Positions 3,201-30,004 of a stretch of 64,000 bases of DNA are shown one piece after another. The stretch covers positions 1-64,000 of the IMG/VR virus record IMGVR_UViG_3300003691_000001. One strand, given 5' to 3'. The notes under the pieces were generated by a model, which worked only from the letters and a program-made list of their open reading frames with translations, had not been told where the DNA came from and did no database searches. Numbering within the stretch: position 1 is the first letter of the stretch; each line of letters begins with the position of its first letter. The position numbers and the translations under genes were made by a program. This DNA is from a virus. Taxonomy: Duplodnaviria > Heunggongvirae > Uroviricota > Caudoviricetes.

Positions 3201-4220
3201 ATGGGATTGATGAGTAAATTAAAGATTACGATGGTTCGGATAAATACCGGTGCATATCTTACAGCAGGAAGCTATTCAAACGGATTCTCCAGTCACTATA
3301 GAATTAATAAGGGAGTGAATGGTGAAGGTGAGAAGACCCCACTATCCAAATGGGAGTACTTCCCAGGCCTTTTGGATGTTATTAGCATAGAAAGAAAGAC
3401 TGCAGATAAGCGTGAGTACACGCACTGGACCCTTGTGGACCCAGAGTTAATGTCAGAGAAGATTCCTGCAACTCTCGAAACTGAGCAGCTTCACTATGAT
3501 AGTGATTATTACTGGGGTGATATGAAGCACCTTGGATCGCTGTACGAGAAGGCGTATGATGTCACACCTGGTGGGTGGGTGGATGAGGAGTTTGAAGTTG
3601 TTCAACAGACTAGTTATGATGTGGATGTTGTTGATCCCCCAGTAGACTTTAAAGTCTACAAAATTGGTAATAACAGTTATATTGGGAAAGATGTTTATGG
3701 AGCGCATCCTAAGACAGACACTATTGAACAACTCTTGTACCCTGACATTATACAGCAGTACCGGCCTTGCCACCTAACATCGCAAGAGACATATAATATT
3801 ATACGGCACTGTATTAAGAATAATATTGATCCCACAAGGGCTGAAATCACTTCAGACTATGACTTCTGTTTCACAGTGAAGAAGAAAGTTGCATTAAAAC
3901 CTTTCACTATCACCACTGAAGTTAAGAAGAAGGGTGGCGGAAGCTATGTACGTCCAAGGTTTAGTAGTAAAACTACATCCCATAAGACAGTAGACCTCTT
4001 CGAGATGACCCATGGGGGGAAGAAGTACGGGGGATATACTGTAGTAAAAGGTTTTAAAGGCGAGAATCAAGAAGACCTTAAAAACAACATAGATGCATAC
4101 CTTACAGATCTTATGGTATACATCAACATGCCTATACACGAATGTGAAAACTGTAAAGGCCTTGGAAGCATTGTTGTGAAAGGTTATAAACTGAACGGGG
4201 GTGAAGGGCGTGAAGAATGA
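3201..4220 (+). CDS. Hypothetical protein, 339 aa
   Basis: Long ORF packed tightly with overlapping neighbours. No motif recognised. C-terminal CENC pair. Confidence 0.5.
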   Translation: MGLMSKLKITMVRINTGAYLTAGSYSNGFSSHYRINKGVNGEGEKTPLSKWEYFPGLLDVISIERKTADKREYTHWTLVDPELMSEKIPATLETEQLHYDSDYYWGDMKHLGSLYEKAYDVTPGGWVDEEFEVVQQTSYDVDVVDPPVDFKVYKIGNNSYIGKDVYGAHPKTDTIEQLLYPDIIQQYRPCHLTSQETYNIIRHCIKNNIDPTRAEITSDYDFCFTVKKKVALKPFTITTEVKKKGGGSYVRPRFSSKTTSHKTVDLFEMTHGGKKYGGYTVVKGFKGENQEDLKNNIDAYLTDLMVYINMPIHECENCKGLGSIVVKGYKLNGGEGREE

Positions 4221-6886: not shown

Positions 6887-9661
6887 ATGGCTGATGGACA
6901 TACAGGCTATAAAGGCAACAAGCCTAGCTATACAAGAAAGACTACTGCAAGATTTAAGGGGATACCTTTGCAAACCGTTGAAGATGTATTACAATTTAAA
7001 ATAGTTTCAATACCTGAACGAGGTATTACAACGAAGACAGCACAGCACTTTGGTGTTAGAACAGAAATGAGTAAAGCAGATGGACATACACCTGTTGCAC
7101 ATTACTTTCCATATACCGAAGATAGTAAGGTTGAAGGGAAAATTGAAAAGAAGGTTGTAGGGTATAAGAAGAGAGATCTTACAAAGCATAAGAAAGAGGA
7201 CGGCCACTTCACCACCATAGGGATTATGAAGCCTGAAGTAGTTGACCTGTTTGGTACAGACTGTGGAAACGTATCTGGAGGTAAGAAGGTGTGGACTACA
7301 GAAGGTGAGTATGATTCAATGATATGCTATCAAGCTATCAAGGCTGAACACTCATCAGGAAACCCCACTGTACTTTCCATAGGATTCGGTGCACCTAATG
7401 CTGTGAAGCATATTGGCCAGAAGCACTGTATGAAGTATCTGAACAAGTTTAAAGAGAAAGTCTTTGCATTCGATAATGACAAGGCTTCAATAGATGAACG
7501 TGCTAAAGGGATCATGCGCGGTAATGAAGCCACTGCAGCAGTGTATGGTCTTATTCCAGACTGTACCGTAGCTATGCTTCCAGACGGCAAAGACCCTTCA
7601 GAGATGTTTAATGATGACCCCTCCTCCTCTGAACTGTTCTGGGCACTGATGAAACCAATCAAATATAAGCCTGAAGGCTTCATCATGTATAGTGAAATAC
7701 GTGATAAAGCTGTTGAAATGCCTTACTTAGGTAAAGGCTGGCCATGGCCTACACTGTTCAAGAAGACTCTTGGACGCAGGCTTGGCGAAGGGTACTACAT
7801 CGGGGCAGGGGTTAAAGCGGGGAAGTGCTTCTTAAAAGGTACGGAAGTCCGTATGTTCGATGGAAGTGTCAAGAACGTTGAAGATGTTGTAACTGGTGAT
7901 GAAGTGATGGGATGGGACAGTACAAAACGTACTGTACTCTCTACTCACTCTGGCCGCGATGAGATGTACGAAGTAAAGCAAGCTCAAGGGAAGAACTATA
8001 TTGTTAACTCTCAGCACACTCTTGTACTGAGGGATTCGGGGAAGAAAGGTCAACTGGTTGAAAGATCTGTAGAGGATTTATATAATGCCTATGGAGACTC
8101 CAACCCTTTACGAGATTTGAAGGGATTTCATTCACCTATTGAATACCCTGAGAAACCTACTGGACTAGATCCTTACACCCTTGGCGTGTGGATGGGTGAT
8201 GGAAGTAGATGCGATAATAGACTTCATCTTGAAAAACAGGATAGTGAATACATCCTGCCGCGATGTTTACCGGTGTCACTGTTTGAAAGTAGCAAAGAGG
8301 GTATGCATGAAGGTGTTATAACAGGTCAGAAAGCGTACTTCTCTTCTTTCAAAGGAAGGAAGTACATTCCTGAGGATATCTTAACAAACTCCAGAAGAGT
8401 TCGTATGGAGGCACTTGCAGGATGGATAGATACAGATGGGCATAAAGATACTCGTAAAGGGTGTAGTTATGAGATTATAACTAAGGACTATTCGCTTGCT
8501 CTAACAGGACAAGAGTTGATGAGATCCCTTGGCTTAAGAGTATCGGTTCGACAGGTAGAGAAAGGTATTAAAGAAACTGGCTTCGTAGGGAAATACTATC
8601 GAATGCTCTTTTCAGGAGACCTGAGAGAAGTACCTATACAGGTGCCTCGTAAAAAATGTACAGAACCTCCTAAGAAAGACCCAACAGTTTCGGCAGTTAA
8701 GCTCTTTCACTTGAAAGAATGCCAATACTACGGATTTGAGACAGACGGAGATCACAAGTTTGTATTGAAGGATTATACTGTTGTACACAATAGTGAATTC
8801 GCTAACAAGCTCATCCAATACATCATCGAGAATGAAAAAGATGTAGACGGTAACGCGCAGAAGGTTGCAGTGTTCAAGTTTGAAGAGGAACCCGACTACA
8901 CTGTGAAGAAAGTTGCAGGGAAGTTCTACAAGAAAGACTTCACCAACCCTGAAAAGATTATCTTCATAGGTGATGAGGGAAAGGAAAAGGATATCTATGG
9001 CTATAACATTATCGATAAGTCAAGCTTCTTCACGCAAGAGGAGATGGAGTATGCTGTTGACACTGTAGGCCCTAACTTGGTAATGTACAATGCCTATGGC
9101 AGTTGTAGATGGGCAGAATTAAAAGGTGCTATCCGACACGCTGTACTGGTTGAACATATTGTAGATATTATTATAGATCCAATATCACGGTTGACATCTG
9201 GTATGACAGCCTCTGAAGCGAATCAAGAGCTTGAAATGTTTGCAGATGAAATTAGCAAGATGAGTAAAGACCTTGGGTTCACTTATTACTGCTTCTCTCA
9301 CCTTAAGCAGCCTACACATGGACCACTCCATGAATTTGGTGGTAAGGTGCAATCTGGACAGTTCACGGGTAGCCGTGCAATGACTCGATGCACCTACTAC
9401 ACTTTTGGTATAGAGCGTAATAAAGATCCTGAACTGGGTGAAAAGGTATTTAACACTAGTTACCTTGTAATACTTGATGACCGTAAGCATGGGAGGACTG
9501 CAAAGATTCCAATGTGGTATGACTCAGACACTGGAGATTACATTGAATCTAGCATGGAGTTCATTGAGGATGAAAGCTGTGCAACGTGGAAAGAGTGGAT
9601 AAACAGGCAAGCAGAGATTGCTGAATATGCCGATGTTCCTGGAGCAGATGAAGAATTTTAG
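6887..9661 (+). CDS. Primase-helicase (toprim plus DnaB-like helicase) containing an intein
   Basis: Toprim TEGEYDSMICYQAIK. Walker A GAGVKAGK | intein | SEFANK. Helicase motifs follow (LVEHIVDIIIDPIS, arginine-finger region). Confidence 0.8.
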   Translation: MADGHTGYKGNKPSYTRKTTARFKGIPLQTVEDVLQFKIVSIPERGITTKTAQHFGVRTEMSKADGHTPVAHYFPYTEDSKVEGKIEKKVVGYKKRDLTKHKKEDGHFTTIGIMKPEVVDLFGTDCGNVSGGKKVWTTEGEYDSMICYQAIKAEHSSGNPTVLSIGFGAPNAVKHIGQKHCMKYLNKFKEKVFAFDNDKASIDERAKGIMRGNEATAAVYGLIPDCTVAMLPDGKDPSEMFNDDPSSSELFWALMKPIKYKPEGFIMYSEIRDKAVEMPYLGKGWPWPTLFKKTLGRRLGEGYYIGAGVKAGKCFLKGTEVRMFDGSVKNVEDVVTGDEVMGWDSTKRTVLSTHSGRDEMYEVKQAQGKNYIVNSQHTLVLRDSGKKGQLVERSVEDLYNAYGDSNPLRDLKGFHSPIEYPEKPTGLDPYTLGVWMGDGSRCDNRLHLEKQDSEYILPRCLPVSLFESSKEGMHEGVITGQKAYFSSFKGRKYIPEDILTNSRRVRMEALAGWIDTDGHKDTRKGCSYEIITKDYSLALTGQELMRSLGLRVSVRQVEKGIKETGFVGKYYRMLFSGDLREVPIQVPRKKCTEPPKKDPTVSAVKLFHLKECQYYGFETDGDHKFVLKDYTVVHNSEFANKLIQYIIENEKDVDGNAQKVAVFKFEEEPDYTVKKVAGKFYKKDFTNPEKIIFIGDEGKEKDIYGYNIIDKSSFFTQEEMEYAVDTVGPNLVMYNAYGSCRWAELKGAIRHAVLVEHIVDIIIDPISRLTSGMTASEANQELEMFADEISKMSKDLGFTYYCFSHLKQPTHGPLHEFGGKVQSGQFTGSRAMTRCTYYTFGIERNKDPELGEKVFNTSYLVILDDRKHGRTAKIPMWYDSDTGDYIESSMEFIEDESCATWKEWINRQAEIAEYADVPGADEEF
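7826..8791 (+). mobile_element. Intein (322 aa) with a LAGLIDADG homing-endonuclease domain, inserted in the helicase P-loop
   Basis: N-terminal splice block CFLKGTEVRMFDG. LAGLIDADG motifs LGVWMGDGS and LAGWIDTDG. C-terminal TVVHN followed by +1 Ser. In frame with the host protein. Confidence 0.8.
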
Positions 9662-9664
9662 GAG

Positions 9665-10243
9665 ATGAGTATGAGTAACACAGATAACACATACAGCCAA
9701 GACTTCAGCGATGCAGAGTACAGACGGGCTCCTGTACCATACGAAGAGTTTGTAAGTACATCGGGTGAAACCATGTGCAGGCTTGAATGGGGGCAGGTAC
9801 AGAAAGTCTCCAACAGAGGCCTGACTACTCGCATTCTTAATCAAAAAGATGAGATAGAGCACATCTCAGAGACGTATATCAAGTTGAAAAGGGAGAAAGA
9901 AGGGGCTGTACATAGCCTTAAGCACTGTAGAGGACGACTCAGAGAGGAGTTGCAGCGGGGGGAAACCCTTCGTACAGCCCTCAAGCAAAGGTCTGAATGC
10001 CTTGAGAAAAGTCAAGGAGACCTGCATCAGGCTCTTGTACGAGTTGGAGACCTTGAAGATCAGGCACAGGCGATGCAAAAGGAGATCAAGGCTCAGATGC
10101 ATAAAGTAAACCTAAGTGAAACACTAATTTACGCCCAAAAAGATAAGATAGAAGTACTGGAACAGGACAAATCTGATGCATCTTGGGCTGCAGAGAATCA
10201 GAGGATTAGTGACATGAATCGAGAGGCAGGAGTATGGAGGTAA
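9665..10243 (+). CDS. Coiled-coil hypothetical protein
   Basis: Heptad-rich, E/Q/L-rich translation. Lies between the helicase and the polymerase. Confidence 0.4.
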   Translation: MSMSNTDNTYSQDFSDAEYRRAPVPYEEFVSTSGETMCRLEWGQVQKVSNRGLTTRILNQKDEIEHISETYIKLKREKEGAVHSLKHCRGRLREELQRGETLRTALKQRSECLEKSQGDLHQALVRVGDLEDQAQAMQKEIKAQMHKVNLSETLIYAQKDKIEVLEQDKSDASWAAENQRISDMNREAGVWR

Positions 10244-12807
10244 TAAAGATAGTAAGTAAACGTGTATGGTTAGGTGATATTGAAACAGATGGGTTGCTTG
10301 ATGAGTGCACGAAAGCTCACTGTTTTGTATTTACTGATGCCAAGAAAGAACATATACGGATCTTTGCAAGACTCAAAGACCTCACAGAAGAGTTCATTAA
10401 AAGTTTAAATGCATCATACAATATTGTATGGTATGCGCTAGAACAGTTTGGTGAATGGCTGCGGAGTGGTGAAGTATCTGGAATAGGTATTCATAACCTA
10501 TTCGGATTCGATGCACCTGCTATGGAGATGCTTGGATACATATCAGGGTACGATATAAGCCCTGAAGGTATTGACGGGTTAGACATAAAACTGTACGATA
10601 CACTGGCAATGTCTCGTACACTCTGGCCTGATCGTCCAATGCCTGCAGGATGCCCTGTTAAAGTGTGGAACCCTGTGAACAAGGTGTACAACACGATTGG
10701 TGCACATGGACTTATGGCCTGGGCATACCGTACAGCGGGTACAAAACCTGCAGTACACGATTGGAGAGACCAAGAAGCCTGGGTATACCTTGACCGGTGT
10801 GTAGAGGATACACTCAATACATCAGATACGTGGGGAATGCTACTTAAAGAGGCTACTAAGAAGGCCATAGGTGCTAAAAATGGATGGACAGATGCCCTGC
10901 GGCTATCAAACCAGTCATACTTTGGGATGTGTGAGCAGGAACGTACCGGCGTACCGTTCAGGATTGAAGAGGCTAAGAAGCTTGTAGTACATATTGATAA
11001 CCTTATGAAATCCATAGAAGATTTTGTAGAACCTAGGCTACCTGAACGTACCCTACCAGCCGGTGAACAGCTTAAATTCCCTGCAGAACCCTTTAAAGGT
11101 GATGGAGAGATAAGCTCTTATGGATGGGGTTACCTACGTAAGATAGGGTACGAGCTTGAAGAGAAGGCTTTTGAAAAGATAAAGTTCCCTGCTAACCCTT
11201 TCAAAGGGGATGGAGGTGTCAGTGCCTATGGAGCTAAATTCATGGAGTCTGAGGGACTTTCCACAGCAGATGAACTACGTGCCAGGGGTGAAGAGATCGC
11301 CGCTCACAACGCAATACAGCCCCTCTCAGGGGACTTATTGACACAGGGCAGGTTGGATCTTGAAAACAAGAAGACAATCGTCCTGAAAGCCGCTATGAAG
11401 CTGTCCAACCAGGCAGACATAAAGGAGTGGCTGTTCACAGCTGGGAACTGGAAGCCTCAACACTGGGGTACCAAGAACGTAACTGTAGACGGTAACAAGA
11501 AGGCTCGTAAAAAGGACGAGATTGCAGAGAAGCTGGGTGAATACTATGATAAGACTCGAGAGAGTGTATTCAAGTATGCCATCTATAAAGAACTTAAAAT
11601 GAACTTTCAGACTATGGACCGGTCTAAAGCTATTCAGAAGCTTGAACGGAAGGCTAGGTTCTTACCTACTACTCCAAAGTTTAAGGATCAAACGGGACAG
11701 TTATGCACAAACCTTGAGCATGTAGAGGGAGATCTTGCAGCAAGGATTGTAAAGTGGTTAAGTATGCGTAATCGACGCACAACATTGCTACCATTAGATG
11801 AGAAGAAGACCACAGGTTGGTTAAACCATCCACGACTTGCAATAGATGGCCGATTACCAGCTGGATCAAGTGGACTGGCTAACACGACTAGACAAAAACA
11901 CAGAACGGTCGTTAACGTGCCTAAGGCTGATCCAACAGTTCTCCTTGGAAGGGAGATGAGAGCCCTATACTATGCACCAGAGGGATGGATGTTCCAAGGG
12001 GTGGATGCCGATGCATTAGAGGCACGTGTAGGTGGTTGGTATGCATGGGTTACAGGAGGAGATGGAGGGCTATACGCTAAAAAGGTATTAGCTCCTAAAG
12101 GTCCTAATGAATTTCATACAGCTAACGCCAGAGATTACTCCAATGCAGCTGGGTTTGAGATAACCCGAAGCAAAGGTAAGAATATTACATATGGTGTAAT
12201 GTACGGAGCCGGTGCAGCGAAGGTTGCAGCCATGCTTGGAATCTCTGTAGTACTTGCACAGAGGGTAATTGATGCGCTATGGGATAACAACCCAGGGTTG
12301 AAAAAGTGTAAAGAGAAGCTAGAGAAACATTGGGAAGCAACAGGTAAGCGATACATACGTGGCATAGATGGCCGTAAGATCTATACACGTTCAAAGCACA
12401 GCTTGTTAAACTGCTTGTTCCAATCAACGGGTGCAATAGTAATGGACTTAGCAGGTGTTATCACTCGTGAAAAGATTGCAGAAGAGGGTTTACAAGACTC
12501 TTATCAACGTGTAATATATATGCATGATGAATACCAGAACCTAATCAGAGAGGATATGGTGGAGGTTAAAAAGTTTTCAACTAAAACACTTGCAGAAGCT
12601 TTTGATGATAGCAAGATGTGGTCAGGGATTAAGGAAGATAATAATCCTGACCATGATGAAGAGTACGATGGACCATGTACTATTTACTACTCAAGAGCAG
12701 CTGAGATCAGTGCATGGGCTATTGAAGAAGCTGGAAAGCGACTTGGATCACCTGTACCCATCACAGGTGGATATGATTTTGGTATGGACTGGAGTGAAAC
12801 GCATTGA
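10234..12807 (+). CDS. DNA polymerase, family A, T7 gp5-like
   Basis: Exo I DIETDGL. Motif B RSKGKNITYGVMYGAGAAK. Motif C YMHDEYQ. Motif A region LYYAPEGWMFQGVDADALEAR. Confidence 0.85.
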   Translation: MEVIKIVSKRVWLGDIETDGLLDECTKAHCFVFTDAKKEHIRIFARLKDLTEEFIKSLNASYNIVWYALEQFGEWLRSGEVSGIGIHNLFGFDAPAMEMLGYISGYDISPEGIDGLDIKLYDTLAMSRTLWPDRPMPAGCPVKVWNPVNKVYNTIGAHGLMAWAYRTAGTKPAVHDWRDQEAWVYLDRCVEDTLNTSDTWGMLLKEATKKAIGAKNGWTDALRLSNQSYFGMCEQERTGVPFRIEEAKKLVVHIDNLMKSIEDFVEPRLPERTLPAGEQLKFPAEPFKGDGEISSYGWGYLRKIGYELEEKAFEKIKFPANPFKGDGGVSAYGAKFMESEGLSTADELRARGEEIAAHNAIQPLSGDLLTQGRLDLENKKTIVLKAAMKLSNQADIKEWLFTAGNWKPQHWGTKNVTVDGNKKARKKDEIAEKLGEYYDKTRESVFKYAIYKELKMNFQTMDRSKAIQKLERKARFLPTTPKFKDQTGQLCTNLEHVEGDLAARIVKWLSMRNRRTTLLPLDEKKTTGWLNHPRLAIDGRLPAGSSGLANTTRQKHRTVVNVPKADPTVLLGREMRALYYAPEGWMFQGVDADALEARVGGWYAWVTGGDGGLYAKKVLAPKGPNEFHTANARDYSNAAGFEITRSKGKNITYGVMYGAGAAKVAAMLGISVVLAQRVIDALWDNNPGLKKCKEKLEKHWEATGKRYIRGIDGRKIYTRSKHSLLNCLFQSTGAIVMDLAGVITREKIAEEGLQDSYQRVIYMHDEYQNLIREDMVEVKKFSTKTLAEAFDDSKMWSGIKEDNNPDHDEEYDGPCTIYYSRAAEISAWAIEEAGKRLGSPVPITGGYDFGMDWSETH

Positions 12808-26506: not shown

Positions 26507-26740
26507 ATGGAAGAAGTACTAACAGTTTACACAGGTAACGGGTGTGCAGGGTGCGTAGAGGTTAAGAGATACCTGAAGCAAGAGGGTTACAAAATCCAAG
26601 AGCGGAATGTACACACAGACCAGGATGCCATGGACTTCCTAGTTAACAGTGGTTTACGTGGTGTACCACATATCTTCAACATAGCAGGTAAGTGGGTTGG
26701 GGATGGTAACAACTATAAACATTTTGGGAATGTTTCATGA
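26507..26740 (+). CDS. nrdH: Glutaredoxin-like NrdH redoxin
   Basis: VYTGNGCAGCVEVKRYL CxxC thioredoxin fold. Lies immediately upstream of the RNR. Confidence 0.65.
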   Translation: MEEVLTVYTGNGCAGCVEVKRYLKQEGYKIQERNVHTDQDAMDFLVNSGLRGVPHIFNIAGKWVGDGNNYKHFGNVS

Positions 26741-26937: not shown

Positions 26938-27936
26938 ATGCAAGTAAACGGTACACAAGCAGCAAGTGATATCAAGTTCTATATGGACTATAGTAAATAC
27001 GATGAAGAGCGACAGACTAAAGAGTCGTTTAAAGACAGTCTACAACGAGTGGAGGATATGCACCGTGGTAAATATGCTAAGAAAATGTCCAAAGAGCTTT
27101 CAGGATATATCGATTATGCTTTTGAGGCATATAACGATAAACTCATACTAGGGAGTCAGAGAGCCCTACAGTTCGGGGGCGATCCTATCTTACGTCACGA
27201 ATCGAGAATGTTCAACTGTTTAAGTTCTTATGCAGACCGTGAAGAAGTGTTTAGAGAATGTTTCTACCAACTCTTGTGCGGGTGCGGGGCAGGACTTAGT
27301 GTCCAAAAACAACACATCAAGAAATTACCTAGGCTATCTTGTAGGGATAAAGAAGCGAAAGTCTTTGTAATCCCTGATACTATTGAGGGGTGGTCAGACG
27401 CGCTGGGGGTACTGATATCTTCATACGTCTGCGCTGGACATGAGGCAGATTTTAAAGAGTACCAGGGGCATCATGTAGCTTTTGACTTCAGTAAGATACG
27501 CCCGAAGGGTGCATTCATCTCTGGAGGGTTCAAAGCTCCAGGTAGTGATGGACTCAGGATGTCTCTTGCAAAAATAGAAGAAATGCTAGACAGAAAGCTG
27601 AAGAGGAAGAAGAATGTTAAGTTCAACTCACTTTTAGCTTACGATATAATCTGTCATGCCTCTGATGCGGTTTTATCGGGAGGCCTTAGACGAAGTGCTT
27701 TGATTATTATGTTTAGTCAATCAGATCTGGACATGCTAGGAGCTAAAACAGGAAATTGGCATGCAGATAACCCACAAAGGGCGCGGAGTAATAACTCTGT
27801 AATGCTCCTTAGAGGAAAGGTGACAAGGGAGGAGTTCCTATTAATAATTGAATCAGTTAAACAGTCAGGAGAGCCAGGTTTTATTTGGACAGATGACCTA
27901 GAGATACTATTCAATCCGTTAAAACTAGCGGCATAA
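26938..27936 (+). CDS. nrdJ: Class II (adenosylcobalamin-dependent) ribonucleotide reductase, N-terminal part
   Basis: MFNCLSS, LLCGCGAGLSV, FSKIRPKGAFISGGFKAPGSDGLRMSL, RSNNSVML and GEPGF parallel L. leichmannii RTPR blocks. The ORF stops just after FNP. Confidence 0.75.
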   Translation: MQVNGTQAASDIKFYMDYSKYDEERQTKESFKDSLQRVEDMHRGKYAKKMSKELSGYIDYAFEAYNDKLILGSQRALQFGGDPILRHESRMFNCLSSYADREEVFRECFYQLLCGCGAGLSVQKQHIKKLPRLSCRDKEAKVFVIPDTIEGWSDALGVLISSYVCAGHEADFKEYQGHHVAFDFSKIRPKGAFISGGFKAPGSDGLRMSLAKIEEMLDRKLKRKKNVKFNSLLAYDIICHASDAVLSGGLRRSALIIMFSQSDLDMLGAKTGNWHADNPQRARSNNSVMLLRGKVTREEFLLIIESVKQSGEPGFIWTDDLEILFNPLKLAA

Positions 27937-28789
27937 GAGAGCAATCTCTTTTGAAAACTAACTTAAAAACAGGGGAAGTCCAGACCGGATAATCCTGTGC
28001 TAATCCAGTATTGGAGTGTGCAACGACTATGATTGACAAGAAAGAATTAACAAAATTATTAAGTTTTATGGCCACTTTTGATGGGGGGATTTACTACAGG
28101 AACCCCTCCGCAAAGAACCCAGCTTTTATCATGAACATGCGGGAAGAGAACCTAGATTATGTGGAATGGGTAAGAGATACCTTGCACAACATAACGGGTG
28201 CAGCGATTGCTGATAGGAAGGATTATAATACTGACGGTTATAGTAGGAAAACTCAAGTCAGGTTAGATTCTAACCAACATCCCTTTCTGAAGACATTACA
28301 TGATAGAATATACATAAACAAGCATAAAGTAATCGACCCTCATATGTTGAAACTATTAGATGCAGAAGCTCTCGCTATCATATTCATGGCAGATGGGTGT
28401 TCATCTTTAATAAAAGGGCATAAAAGCCCTAGCGCAACCATAAGGTTATTTACCTGCGGGTTTAGCTATGCAGATAATATGTCCCTAAGCAAGGCTATTT
28501 ATAATAAACTTAATATAATAACTACAGTAGGTAAGCACGGTAAGTATTGGAAACTCAATGTGAAGTCTAGTAGTATTGTAGACTTTGCAAGGATAGTGCA
28601 GCCCTATGTATGCGATTCTTTTCTTTACAAGATCGAACAGTTAGCCCCTTTCTTAGAACATAGAGAGGGTGGTGATATAGTCTGTTCTGTACGGGAACGT
28701 ATAGAGGCTGGGGGGAGACTTCCAGTCCCTGGAGAAGATTCCAGAGTAACAAGAAAGGTGTAGAAATAGGATTATGCCCTTACCTGGAG
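27937..28789 (+). mobile_element. Homing-endonuclease gene insertion (or ORF-containing intron) splitting the RNR gene
   Basis: Interrupts the RNR at the NPCGE active-site position. Contains the LAGLIDADG ORF in a third reading frame. Confidence 0.6.
28011..28763 (+). CDS. LAGLIDADG homing endonuclease (double-motif)
   Basis: LSFMATFDGG and IIFMADGCS motifs about 100 aa apart. Confidence 0.75.
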   Translation: MECATTMIDKKELTKLLSFMATFDGGIYYRNPSAKNPAFIMNMREENLDYVEWVRDTLHNITGAAIADRKDYNTDGYSRKTQVRLDSNQHPFLKTLHDRIYINKHKVIDPHMLKLLDAEALAIIFMADGCSSLIKGHKSPSATIRLFTCGFSYADNMSLSKAIYNKLNIITTVGKHGKYWKLNVKSSSIVDFARIVQPYVCDSFLYKIEQLAPFLEHREGGDIVCSVRERIEAGGRLPVPGEDSRVTRKV

Positions 28790-30004
28790 GTGGGGGAAGA
28801 ACGGATCAGTGGTTGGAGCGGTTGCAACCTTACAACAATGAATGGAGGGGCTTGTACAAATGAAGAAATATTCTTAAGAGCTTGTAAGGCTTCTGCCATA
28901 TTGGGTACACTCCAAGCAGGGTATACTAACTTCAAATATATTGGTAAACATAATAAGAAGATCTTTGACCAAGAGGCTTTACTAGGTTGCAGTATTACAG
29001 GTTGGACTAATAACCCTGAATTCCTCTTTAACCCAGAGGTACAAAGAAGAGGCGCTGAAGAAGTCCTTAAGTGGAATGCTATCGTAGCCGATTTAATAGG
29101 AATCAAGCATGCAGCACGTACTACATGTTGTAAGCCAGAAGGTAATGCTTCTGTACTATTACAGACTGCTTCAGGTATCCATGGGGAACATGCTGAACGA
29201 TATTTTAGAAGCATGCAGGTGAACAAGGAAAGTGAGATTGCTCAGGCATTCGCAGCCTTGAACCCACGTGCAACTGAAGACAGTGTATGGAGTGCAGCCG
29301 GTACAGATTATGTAGTGAGTGTACCAGTCATAGCTAAAGAGGGAAGCCTCTTTAAGAAAGACCTCTTGGGTGTTAAACAACTTGAACTGGTTAAGCTTAC
29401 ACAGAATAACTGGGTTGAGTATGGAACACGTCATGAGAACTGTGTGAACAAGAATGCACGGCATAACGTATCCAACACCATCCAGGTTGATGACTGGGAT
29501 GAAGTAGGTAATTACATCTTTGAAAACCGTGATCACTTTGCAGGCGTTAGCCTCTTAGCTGCAACGGGTGACAAAGACTATGTACAGGCCCCATTCTGTG
29601 AAGTCCTTACAGCTCAAGAGCTTCTGGATAAGTACGGAACAGCATCAATGTTTGCAGGTGGACTAGTGGTAGATGCACTCCATGCCTTTGACAACCTCTG
29701 GCAGGCCTGTGACACGTTTACAGGGGAAGGTATGTCTAGGGTTAACCTTGTTGTAGAAACCTCTGAGAACTGCTTACAGAGGGACCTGGTACGCCGTGTA
29801 CGGAAGTTCGCATCTAGGTACTGTGAAGGTGATATACTCCAAGTAACTTACATGCTTAAGGATGTGTACAACCTACACCGATGGGAAGGGATTGTACGTG
29901 AGTGGAAAGGTATTGATTGGGATACATTTGATTTCCAACCATCATATGTTGATGTGGATACTACAGGAAGTGCAGCTTGTGCTGGTGGAATGTGCGAGTA
30001 CTAA
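28790..30004 (+). CDS. nrdJ: Class II ribonucleotide reductase, C-terminal part
   Basis: GEERISGWSGCNL (RTPR GEISLANGEPCNL). LLGCSITGW. CKPEGNASVLLQTASGIHGEHAERYFRSMQV (RTPR VKPSGTVAKLAGASEGMHFHYGAYLIQRIRF). C-terminal CAGGMC redox pair. GTG start; true N-terminus uncertain. Confidence 0.75.
   Translation: MGEERISGWSGCNLTTMNGGACTNEEIFLRACKASAILGTLQAGYTNFKYIGKHNKKIFDQEALLGCSITGWTNNPEFLFNPEVQRRGAEEVLKWNAIVADLIGIKHAARTTCCKPEGNASVLLQTASGIHGEHAERYFRSMQVNKESEIAQAFAALNPRATEDSVWSAAGTDYVVSVPVIAKEGSLFKKDLLGVKQLELVKLTQNNWVEYGTRHENCVNKNARHNVSNTIQVDDWDEVGNYIFENRDHFAGVSLLAATGDKDYVQAPFCEVLTAQELLDKYGTASMFAGGLVVDALHAFDNLWQACDTFTGEGMSRVNLVVETSENCLQRDLVRRVRKFASRYCEGDILQVTYMLKDVYNLHRWEGIVREWKGIDWDTFDFQPSYVDVDTTGSAACAGGMCEY

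Follow-up and report, generated by a model that had tools for sequence, protein, structure and literature searches.

In the 64,000-nucleotide (nt) stretch of Caudoviricetes DNA analysed here, named "the window" throughout (IMG/VR record IMGVR_UViG_3300003691_000001, positions 1 to 64,000), one phage gene for a class II (B12-type) ribonucleotide reductase (RNR) resembling ribonucleoside-triphosphate reductase (RTPR) is, with a probability that we put at about 0.93, interrupted after the first base of its thiyl-radical cysteine codon by a mobile group I intron at 27920-28757. The evidence consists of the anatomy of the open reading frames (ORFs), an exon junction that restores the cysteine, the colinearity of the spliced product with uninterrupted homologs, an RNA structure with covariation, the family to which the endonuclease encoded in the intron belongs, and the recurrence of the intron at the same site with and without its ORF. 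By analogy with characterised elements of this kind, the intron would splice itself and its endonuclease would cut the intron-less form of the gene.

The Interrupted Reductase Gene and Its Exon Junction

Three ORFs lie on the + strand in three different frames, namely 26938..27936 (332 amino acids, aa), 28011..28763 (250 aa from a TTG) and 28790..30004 (404 aa from a GTG). The outer two each match a different half of one set of phage proteins, whose annotation is ribonucleoside-triphosphate reductase, and sequence comparison confirms that they belong to a single RTPR-like class II RNR, ORF 1 being its N-terminal part and the last ORF its C-terminal part. The main features of the locus are the following.

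26938..27919, + strand: exon 1 of the RTPR-like RNR, coding residues 1-327 plus T, the first base of the Cys328 codon; colinear with the RHph_I1_18 protein
27920..28757, + strand: group I intron, 838 nt, beginning UAAAACUAGCGG and ending GUAACAAGAAAG; omega-G is G28757
27934..27936, + strand: TAA ending the exon 1 read-through, 15 nt into the intron, source of the ..NPLKLAA tail
28029..28763, + strand: LAGLIDADG homing endonuclease ORF, I-SceI-like, two-motif, 244 aa, assigned by Pfam; public protein sets contain the form from this ATG
28758..30004, + strand: exon 2, from the last two bases (GT) of the Cys328 codon through VEIGLCPYLEVGEERISGWSGCNL to the stop at 30002-30004

Exon 1 ends in ..AAT CCG T and exon 2 starts with GT GTA GAA ATA GGA.., and T27919 joined to G28758-T28759 makes TGT (Cys), giving an in-frame ORF of 2229 nt and 742 aa that reads ..ILFNP-C-VEIGLCPYLEVGEERISGWSGCNL.. 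to the stop at 30004. When ORF 1 is instead read through into the intron, it ends in ..ILFNPLKLAA. With a caret marking the splice site, the predicted ligated RNA junction is AAUCCGU^GUGUAGAAAUAGG, or TTCAATCCGT^GTGTAGAAATAGG in its DNA form; the peptide across the predicted junction is ILFNPCVEIGLCPYLEVGEER, and the intron-less site sequence around it is GAGATACTATTCAATCCGTGTGTAGAAATAGGATTATGCC. The exon 2 frame is open upstream of GTG 28790 as far as a stop at 28673, and reads ..K-G-VEIGLCPYLEV-GEERISGWSGCNL.

The closest uninterrupted relative, that of Rhizobium phage RHph_I1_18 (L001), has ..HTYNPCVEIGKFPQLDGVSGWQGCNL.. at its active site, and the uninterrupted homologs share the pattern NPCVEIG(K/L), 13-17 residues and then SGWQGCNL; the thiyl-radical loop of this phage clade is N-P-C-V-E, and some 15 residues separate it from the SGW.GCNL block. 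The spliced window protein aligns end to end with RHph_I1_18 (53% identity) and with the spliced protein of Pseudaeromonas phage KLEP7 (52%), and across the junction N326, P327, C328, E330, I331 and G332 are invariant. Its thiyl-radical loop N-x-C-x-E appears as N326-P-C328-V-E330, and its C-terminal Cys pair as ..ACAGGMCEY, which corresponds to AC(S/A)GGxCE in the homologs. Among NCBIfam models, TIGR02505 (RTPR) fits best (E 3e-33), its 114.9 bits lying below the cut-off of 340 for membership in the equivalog, and the best solved-structure relative is the RTPR of L. leichmannii (PDB 1L1L, 2.6e-10). The window enzyme belongs to a divergent phage clade related to RTPR, and is not the RTPR equivalog itself.

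Part of the original prediction, made from the letters of this DNA and a list of its ORFs, stands. The ORF listing agrees with its three ORFs in three frames; the monomeric-type class II RNR interrupted at its thiyl-radical cysteine that it had proposed is borne out by halves colinear with RHph_I1_18 and by C328 at the junction; and the alignment of the halves to an RTPR profile that it had called for finds TIGR02505 as the best NCBIfam model, yet below the equivalog cut-off. It went astray in the details of the break, which it had placed exactly within an NPCGE motif. The motif of the clade is NPCVE, the "GEE" taken for its end lies 11 residues downstream of the real C-x-E, and exon 2 begins at 28758, taking in 32 nt that precede the mechanically called ORF. 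It was because NPCGE was assumed and the exon 2 boundary misplaced by these 32 nt that the catalytic cysteine seemed lost and its codon was declared unrecoverable by any simple join, which the TGT described above contradicts.

Other joins were considered and set aside. Joining T27919 to 28791 (Leu) or 27918 to 28790 (Val) was rejected, the first base of exon 2 being 28758; a homopolymer error in sequencing the run of five G at 28792-28796, which would make T^GT GGG GAA, is unneeded given the NPCVE homologs; and a join to the TGC at 28775 (NPCPYLEV..) has no omega-G and does not match the homolog spacing.

For annotation, we suggest one spliced coding sequence (CDS), join(26938..27919,28758..30004), since two truncated "reductases" are recorded instead in at least one deposited phage genome (KLEP7) and in many metagenome gene calls. 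Just upstream of the RNR lies an ORF at 26507-26740 (+) with a GNGCAGC motif (CxxC), glutaredoxin- or thioredoxin-like by eye; thioredoxin or glutaredoxin genes also adjoin RTPR in relatives.

Structure and Covariation of the Group I Ribozyme

The RNA between the exons can be folded into the full set of group I helices, listed here with their positions in the window.

27916-27921 / 27926-27931, + strand: P1, exon CCGU plus intron UA with UAGCGG; U27919•G27928 wobble at the 5' splice site
27935-40 / 27945-50, + strand: P2 hairpin, AAGAGA/UCUCUU, with a GCAA (GNRA) loop; compensatory double changes in 6 of 6 pairs
27958-63 (CUAACU) / 28639-44 (AGUUAG), + strand: P3, its 3' strand within the endonuclease ORF; covaries
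27969-74 / 27993-98, + strand: P4; covariation, recovered in the minimum free energy (MFE) fold
27978-81 / 27987-90, + strand: P5; covariation, recovered in the MFE fold
27999-28019, + strand: P6/P6a, re-derived by hand from the sequence
28025-29 (GACUA) / 28678-82 (UAGUC), + strand: P7; covaries in ORF-less members
28646-53 / 28662-69, + strand: P8 hairpin, CCCUUUCU/AGAGAGGG
28670-77, + strand: J8/7, UGGUGAUA
28687-93 / 28698-704, + strand: P9, with a GGAA (GNRA) loop; re-derived by hand
28706-14 / 28719-27, + strand: P9.1, with a GAGA loop
28729-33 / 28740-44, + strand: P9.2; hand model, MFE fold
to 28757, + strand: conserved 3' tail, AGAGUAACAAGAAAG, its last base being omega-G

All of these helices from P1 to P5 and from P7 to P9.2 are fully paired in the window, with at most one mismatch in P6, and the conserved GAUAUAGUC block of J8/7-P7' agrees with the Rfam consensus and is invariant in the alignment. 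The conserved P3-P9 core, the P3/P7 pseudoknot and the two helical domains (P4-P6 and P3-P8-P7-P9) are all present, with covariation. With its ORF deleted, the window intron folds with a z of -5.1, and its MFE structure holds the same helices.

The covariation was seen in two ways. Run on a plain MAFFT alignment of the ORF-deleted introns, RNAalifold found unaided P1 (with the U•G at the proposed 5' splice site), P2, P4, P5, P7, P9 and P9.1, with compensatory double changes in 26 of 45 pairs. To this, the full hand model adds the pseudoknotted P3, P6/P6a, P8 and P9.2, its pairs being counted on an alignment of nine sequences (A3), where 96.4% of the pair cells are paired, against 36-47% when the partner is slid by 1-3 columns. 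Both sides have changed in 33 of 62 pairs, a number reached in none of 500 shuffles (shuffled mean 15), and the covariation score is 0.397 versus at most 0.085 in the slid controls. The clearest example is P3, for which the window has CUAACU/AGUUAG, L207 and L213 have CUAACC/GGUUAG, and the L203 group has UUUAUC/GAUAAA. The nine sequences of this alignment do not differ in P7, which covaries in the ORF-less members, being GACUG/CAGUC in L209 and L211 and GACCA/UGGUC in L164.

The 3' half of the core (28639-28757) falls inside the endonuclease ORF. The original prediction had judged the flanks outside the ORFs too short for a group I core, which holds only if the core is barred from overlapping an ORF; they looked so because the endonuclease frame takes in the ribozyme's entire 3' half and ends only 6 nt past the start of exon 2, leaving about 26 nt outside the ORFs on the 3' side. 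Its LAGLIDADG gene between the RNR halves is upheld (LAGLIDADG_2, 1.3e-21), and its description as free-standing is not, the ORF lying inside the group I ribozyme. Among the options that it had left open, the ORF-overlapping intron is the answer, and the split gene of the Aeh1 type fails on a Cys codon divided T^GT.

Homologous Introns at the Same Site

Thirteen homologous introns were assembled, comprising those of the window, KLEP7, L164, L203, L205, L206, L207, L209, L211, L212, L213, L214 and L216; the further ones were taken from contigs that code truncated RNR N-halves, and L164 came from a pattern scan of metagenomes. All 13 have the form ..AAY CCG U^intron ..G^G[UC] NNN GAR, which gives NPC(V/A/S)E on ligation. 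The P1 U•G pair at the last base of the 5' exon and the intron-final G (omega-G, G28757 in the window) before G[UC] are likewise found in 13 of 13.

Eight of these introns (L203, L205, L206, L207, L212, L213, L214 and L216) bear a LAGLIDADG ORF and measure 813-857 nt, and the three-ORF layout recurs in this way on independent phage contigs. L209 and L211 are ORF-less introns of 220-221 nt at the identical site. In the genome of KLEP7 (OM654377; L002 176-2610), a 230-nt ORF-less intron at L002 1146-1375 sits at the same nucleotide position as the window intron and has nearly the same starting sequence; in GenBank, the KLEP7 RTPR stands as two CDSs (gp198 and gp197), with the intron unannotated and the start of gp197 inside it. 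These ORF-less copies of 220-230 nt at the identical site (KLEP7, L209 and L211) indicate that the ribozyme and the ORF are separable modules.

The intron of L164 (281 nt, about 8570-8850) has extra hairpins (GUGG-AUAA-CCAC and others) between the 5' strand of P7 and P3', where the others hold the endonuclease ORF. Introns of the IA type have P7.1/P7.2 between P7 and P3'. L164 is also the only member above the Rfam group I threshold, with a full-length match to Intron_gpI (RF00028) of 62.9 bits (threshold 50; E 5e-14).

Nucleotide searches returned less. Megablast of phage genomes gave no match, nor did the exact intron pattern in IMG/VR; a 15-base pattern found at least 120 stretches in metagenome contigs, three of them with the gene among the matches listed, and the rest are probably chance matches.

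The Intron-Encoded Endonuclease and the Proposed Mechanism

The middle ORF belongs to Pfam LAGLIDADG_2 (PF03161), with 77.7 bits against a cut-off of 25 (E 1.3e-21), and has 344 homologs in the database at E<1e-5; its best solved-structure match is I-SceI, a weak one (E about 0.01). The motifs ATFDGG and FMADGC are seen in its translation, and the two LAGLIDADG helices, ..LLSFMATFDGGIY.. and ..ALAIIFMADGCSS.., keep their acidic residues and are conserved in relatives.

This endonuclease is encoded by the intron and lies within the group I ribozyme, at the junction between the 5' strand of P7 and P3'. Its ATG at 28029-31 overlaps the last base of the P7 5' strand (GACUAUG), as in all ORF-bearing relatives examined, and its last 40 or so codons traverse P3', P8, P7' and P9-P9.2 before the TAG at 28761-63, which lies 6 nt inside exon 2. 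Homology to the relatives stops at residue ~202-205, which is P3'; the relatives' own frames end in P3' (by the TAA in GAUAAA, L203 group), in P8 (L207) or in P9 (L213). In the window, P3' has changed to AGUUAG, and with this the frame became open through the whole 3' core.

In the proposed mechanism, the pre-mRNA would fold into P1-P9.2, an external guanosine would attack after U27919, and the freed 3'-OH of exon 1 would then attack after G28757, thereby ligating the exons to ..AAU CCG U^GU GUA GAA AUA.. for a 742-aa enzyme with an intact N-P-C-V-E loop. The endonuclease would act as other LAGLIDADG enzymes of introns do and cleave, around the NPCVEIG codons, alleles that lack the intron, and repair copied from the intron-containing allele would spread the intron by homing. 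The family may also be of use as a tool, with hundreds of members at 50-65% identity and a defined conserved target from which new LAGLIDADG specificities might be drawn.

The endonuclease start in P7 and the overlap of the ORF with the core suggest, speculatively, that endonuclease translation and ribozyme folding compete. Ribosomes translating the endonuclease would then unfold the ribozyme, making the endonuclease and the RNR mutually exclusive products and the overlap a switch on splicing, or alternatively the protein might double as a maturase; we regard either as rather unlikely.

Several Mobile Elements at One Active-Site Codon

When the best 120 database matches to the RNR N-half were classified (a list that may favour short proteins, so that the counts are not frequencies), 41 were found to end in NPL(x)[LV]AA, the read-through signature of the window intron, and 6 more in ..TSGL, which, as judged from the protein tails only, is consistent with the same 5' sequence in another frame. 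Another 24 stop after NPCV (NPCV[N/S/T]..), 12 run on as an intein (NPC[V/L]TGDTLV.., PF14890), and 19 continue uninterrupted. The best 80 IMG/VR loci found by tblastn are all uninterrupted at this site, in a ranking that favours uninterrupted genes.

The tails ending in NPCV are explained by a second intron. L218 (logan SRR28248347_273), at about 4019-4194, has a group I-like intron of another kind, small and devoid of an ORF (AGACUA ... GAUAGUCC), whose insertion point lies 4 nt downstream from that of the window intron, as ..TGC GU^..G^C GAA ATT, and an intron of this type accounts for the 24 homologs that stop there. The intein, for its part, starts at the same catalytic cysteine, so that intron and intein lineages target the same codon. 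Intein-bearing relatives include P0011, P0013, P0021, P0027, P0041, P0080, P0096, P0101, P0103, P0107, P0111 and others.

The window intron appears to be one member of a large and essentially unannotated environmental family, in which the thiyl-radical Cys codon of phage RTPR genes is contested by an intein and by two group I introns with insertion sites 4 nt from each other, a conclusion better supported than that of a translational switch on splicing. It illustrates plainly the convergence of several selfish elements upon a single catalytic codon. A further RTPR homolog, L081 1639-2531 (IMGVR_UViG_3300047457_001115), contains an in-frame insert of about 890 nt where the window protein has residue ~94; this insert, at the Cys of the N-C-x-S motif, is probably an intein at a second active-site cysteine.

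Weighing of the Alternatives

Several points count against a group I intron that splices in this genome. In the window, RF00028 finds two partial matches, one at 27965-28047 (20.9 bits; the P3-P6/J6-7 part, model positions 56-151) and one at 28369-28704 (23.9 bits; including GAUAUAGUC and P9). These are the two halves of the core, flanking and partly within the endonuclease ORF; both are below the gathering score of 50 bits, the core being split by ~600 nt of ORF, as seen in the covariance-model scan that the original prediction had advised. The same model gives no match at E<=1 on the ORF-less introns of KLEP7, L209 and L211, and inspection by eye revealed no persuasive P10 helix involving the start of exon 2. 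An endonuclease ORF across the whole 3' core could in principle hinder folding, and splicing in this genome is argued by analogy with characterised group I introns.

A decayed element, with intron or host gene out of function in this genome and no RNR produced, is improbable. The endonuclease ORF has lost the stop codon that ends the ORFs of its relatives in P3' or P8, and it continues into exon 2, which can be read as drift, and nothing else speaks positively for decay; but every core helix is intact in the window copy, with at most the one mismatch in P6, no stop breaks the 742 codons of the two exons, in which every residue invariant in the family is present, and the acidic residues are kept in both LAGLIDADG motifs.

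Less probable still is a gene in pieces, that is, two separately translated polypeptides that reassemble without RNA splicing, as with nrdA-a/nrdA-b of Aeromonas phage Aeh1. There is precedent for it (PMC3045599, PMC3653736), and the three separate ORFs in three frames, as well as the two CDSs of the KLEP7 homolog in GenBank, have just this appearance. However, with the Cys328 codon split T^GT, C328-V329, and with it the catalytic cysteine, is in neither ORF. From the stop at 28673 to GTG 28790, the exon 2 frame offers no start codon (ATG, GTG or TTG), so that the C-half would also lose V329-E330..V339, and the GGAGG before this GTG abuts it with zero spacer. The intervening RNA has a ribozyme fold supported by covariation, which the insertion of a free-standing gene does not need, and ORF-less copies of 220 nt at the same site cannot sensibly be explained as inserted genes.

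An intein or a group II intron in place of the group I intron is hardly tenable: LAGLIDADG-domain inteins do occupy exactly this Cys in related genes (the 12 of 120 homologs with PF14890), but the window insert is out of frame with both exons, meets a TAA 15 nt after the junction and has no Hint domain in the Pfam scan of its ORFs, while for group II there is no such family in the Rfam scans and no reverse-transcriptase or maturase ORF.

Other Features of the Window

The window is phage DNA, with genes for a family-A DNA polymerase, RdgC, a ligase, Gad1, a capsid protein and Ig-domain tail proteins. Over its whole 64 kb, it has no tRNA genes and no Rfam family at the gathering score. An ORF at 6887-9661 (+; 924 aa), just upstream of the family-A DNA polymerase (10234-12807), shows at residues ~309-564 the domains Hom_end_hint (9.8e-20), Hom_end (1.3e-6) and Hint. 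These form an intein that bears a homing-endonuclease domain and interrupts the host protein, a second mobile element in this genome. Another ORF, at 3201-4220 (+; 339 aa), strongly matches Gad1, an anti-Gabija protein (PF25705, 5.8e-62).

Comparison with Known Systems

RNR genes are the phage genes most often interrupted by introns, and a survey of 2013 lists no more than two phage nrdJ genes that are split, and presents neither case as an intron (PMC3653736). The endonucleases of phage introns are mainly of the GIY-YIG, HNH, EDxHD and PD-(D/E)xK families (PMC3984707, PMC3943268), and LAGLIDADG inteins occur in phage nrdA (PMC7344957). We found no open-access paper describing the present RTPR intron family, its RNA structure or its insertion site.

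With the known group I introns of phage RNR genes, the window element shares its target, a codon in a catalytic motif that is highly conserved, as well as the optional presence of an endonuclease ORF and a stop codon in frame a short way past the 5' splice site. It differs in its host, those introns being found in class I or III RNR genes and this one in a single-chain, RTPR-like class II gene, and also in its LAGLIDADG enzyme, whose ORF lies between P7 and P3' and extends over the entire 3' core and the 3' splice site. With nrdA-a/nrdA-b of Aeh1 and its free-standing mobE, it has in common an RNR large-subunit gene broken near active-site residues and annotated as two CDSs; in Aeh1, however, there is no ribozyme and both halves are translated and reassemble, whereas the window has a ribozyme, a split codon and a cysteine that would need splicing to be made. 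I-SceI and the LAGLIDADG_2 enzymes are likewise single-chain, two-motif proteins encoded in group I introns. LAGLIDADG_2 enzymes are known from organellar and bacterial rRNA group I introns, e.g., the LAGLIDADG protein of the Thermotoga 23S intron, which has maturase activity; the relation to the window enzyme is very distant, and the host here is a protein-coding gene of a phage. Closest in setting are the crAss-like phages, which are also metagenomic and have group I introns encoding LAGLIDADG enzymes, as well as inteins in core genes, although in another phage group and in other target genes (Yutin et al. 2021, PMC7886860).

In summary, the window element is of an ordinary kind, a mobile group I intron that carries a homing endonuclease, and is mildly unusual in its class II RNR host, in having a LAGLIDADG enzyme in a phage, and in an ORF that overlaps the 3' core and the splice site. 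It overturns no known mechanism, and widens the pattern long familiar from introns in phage RNR genes by a class II host gene and a LAGLIDADG enzyme.

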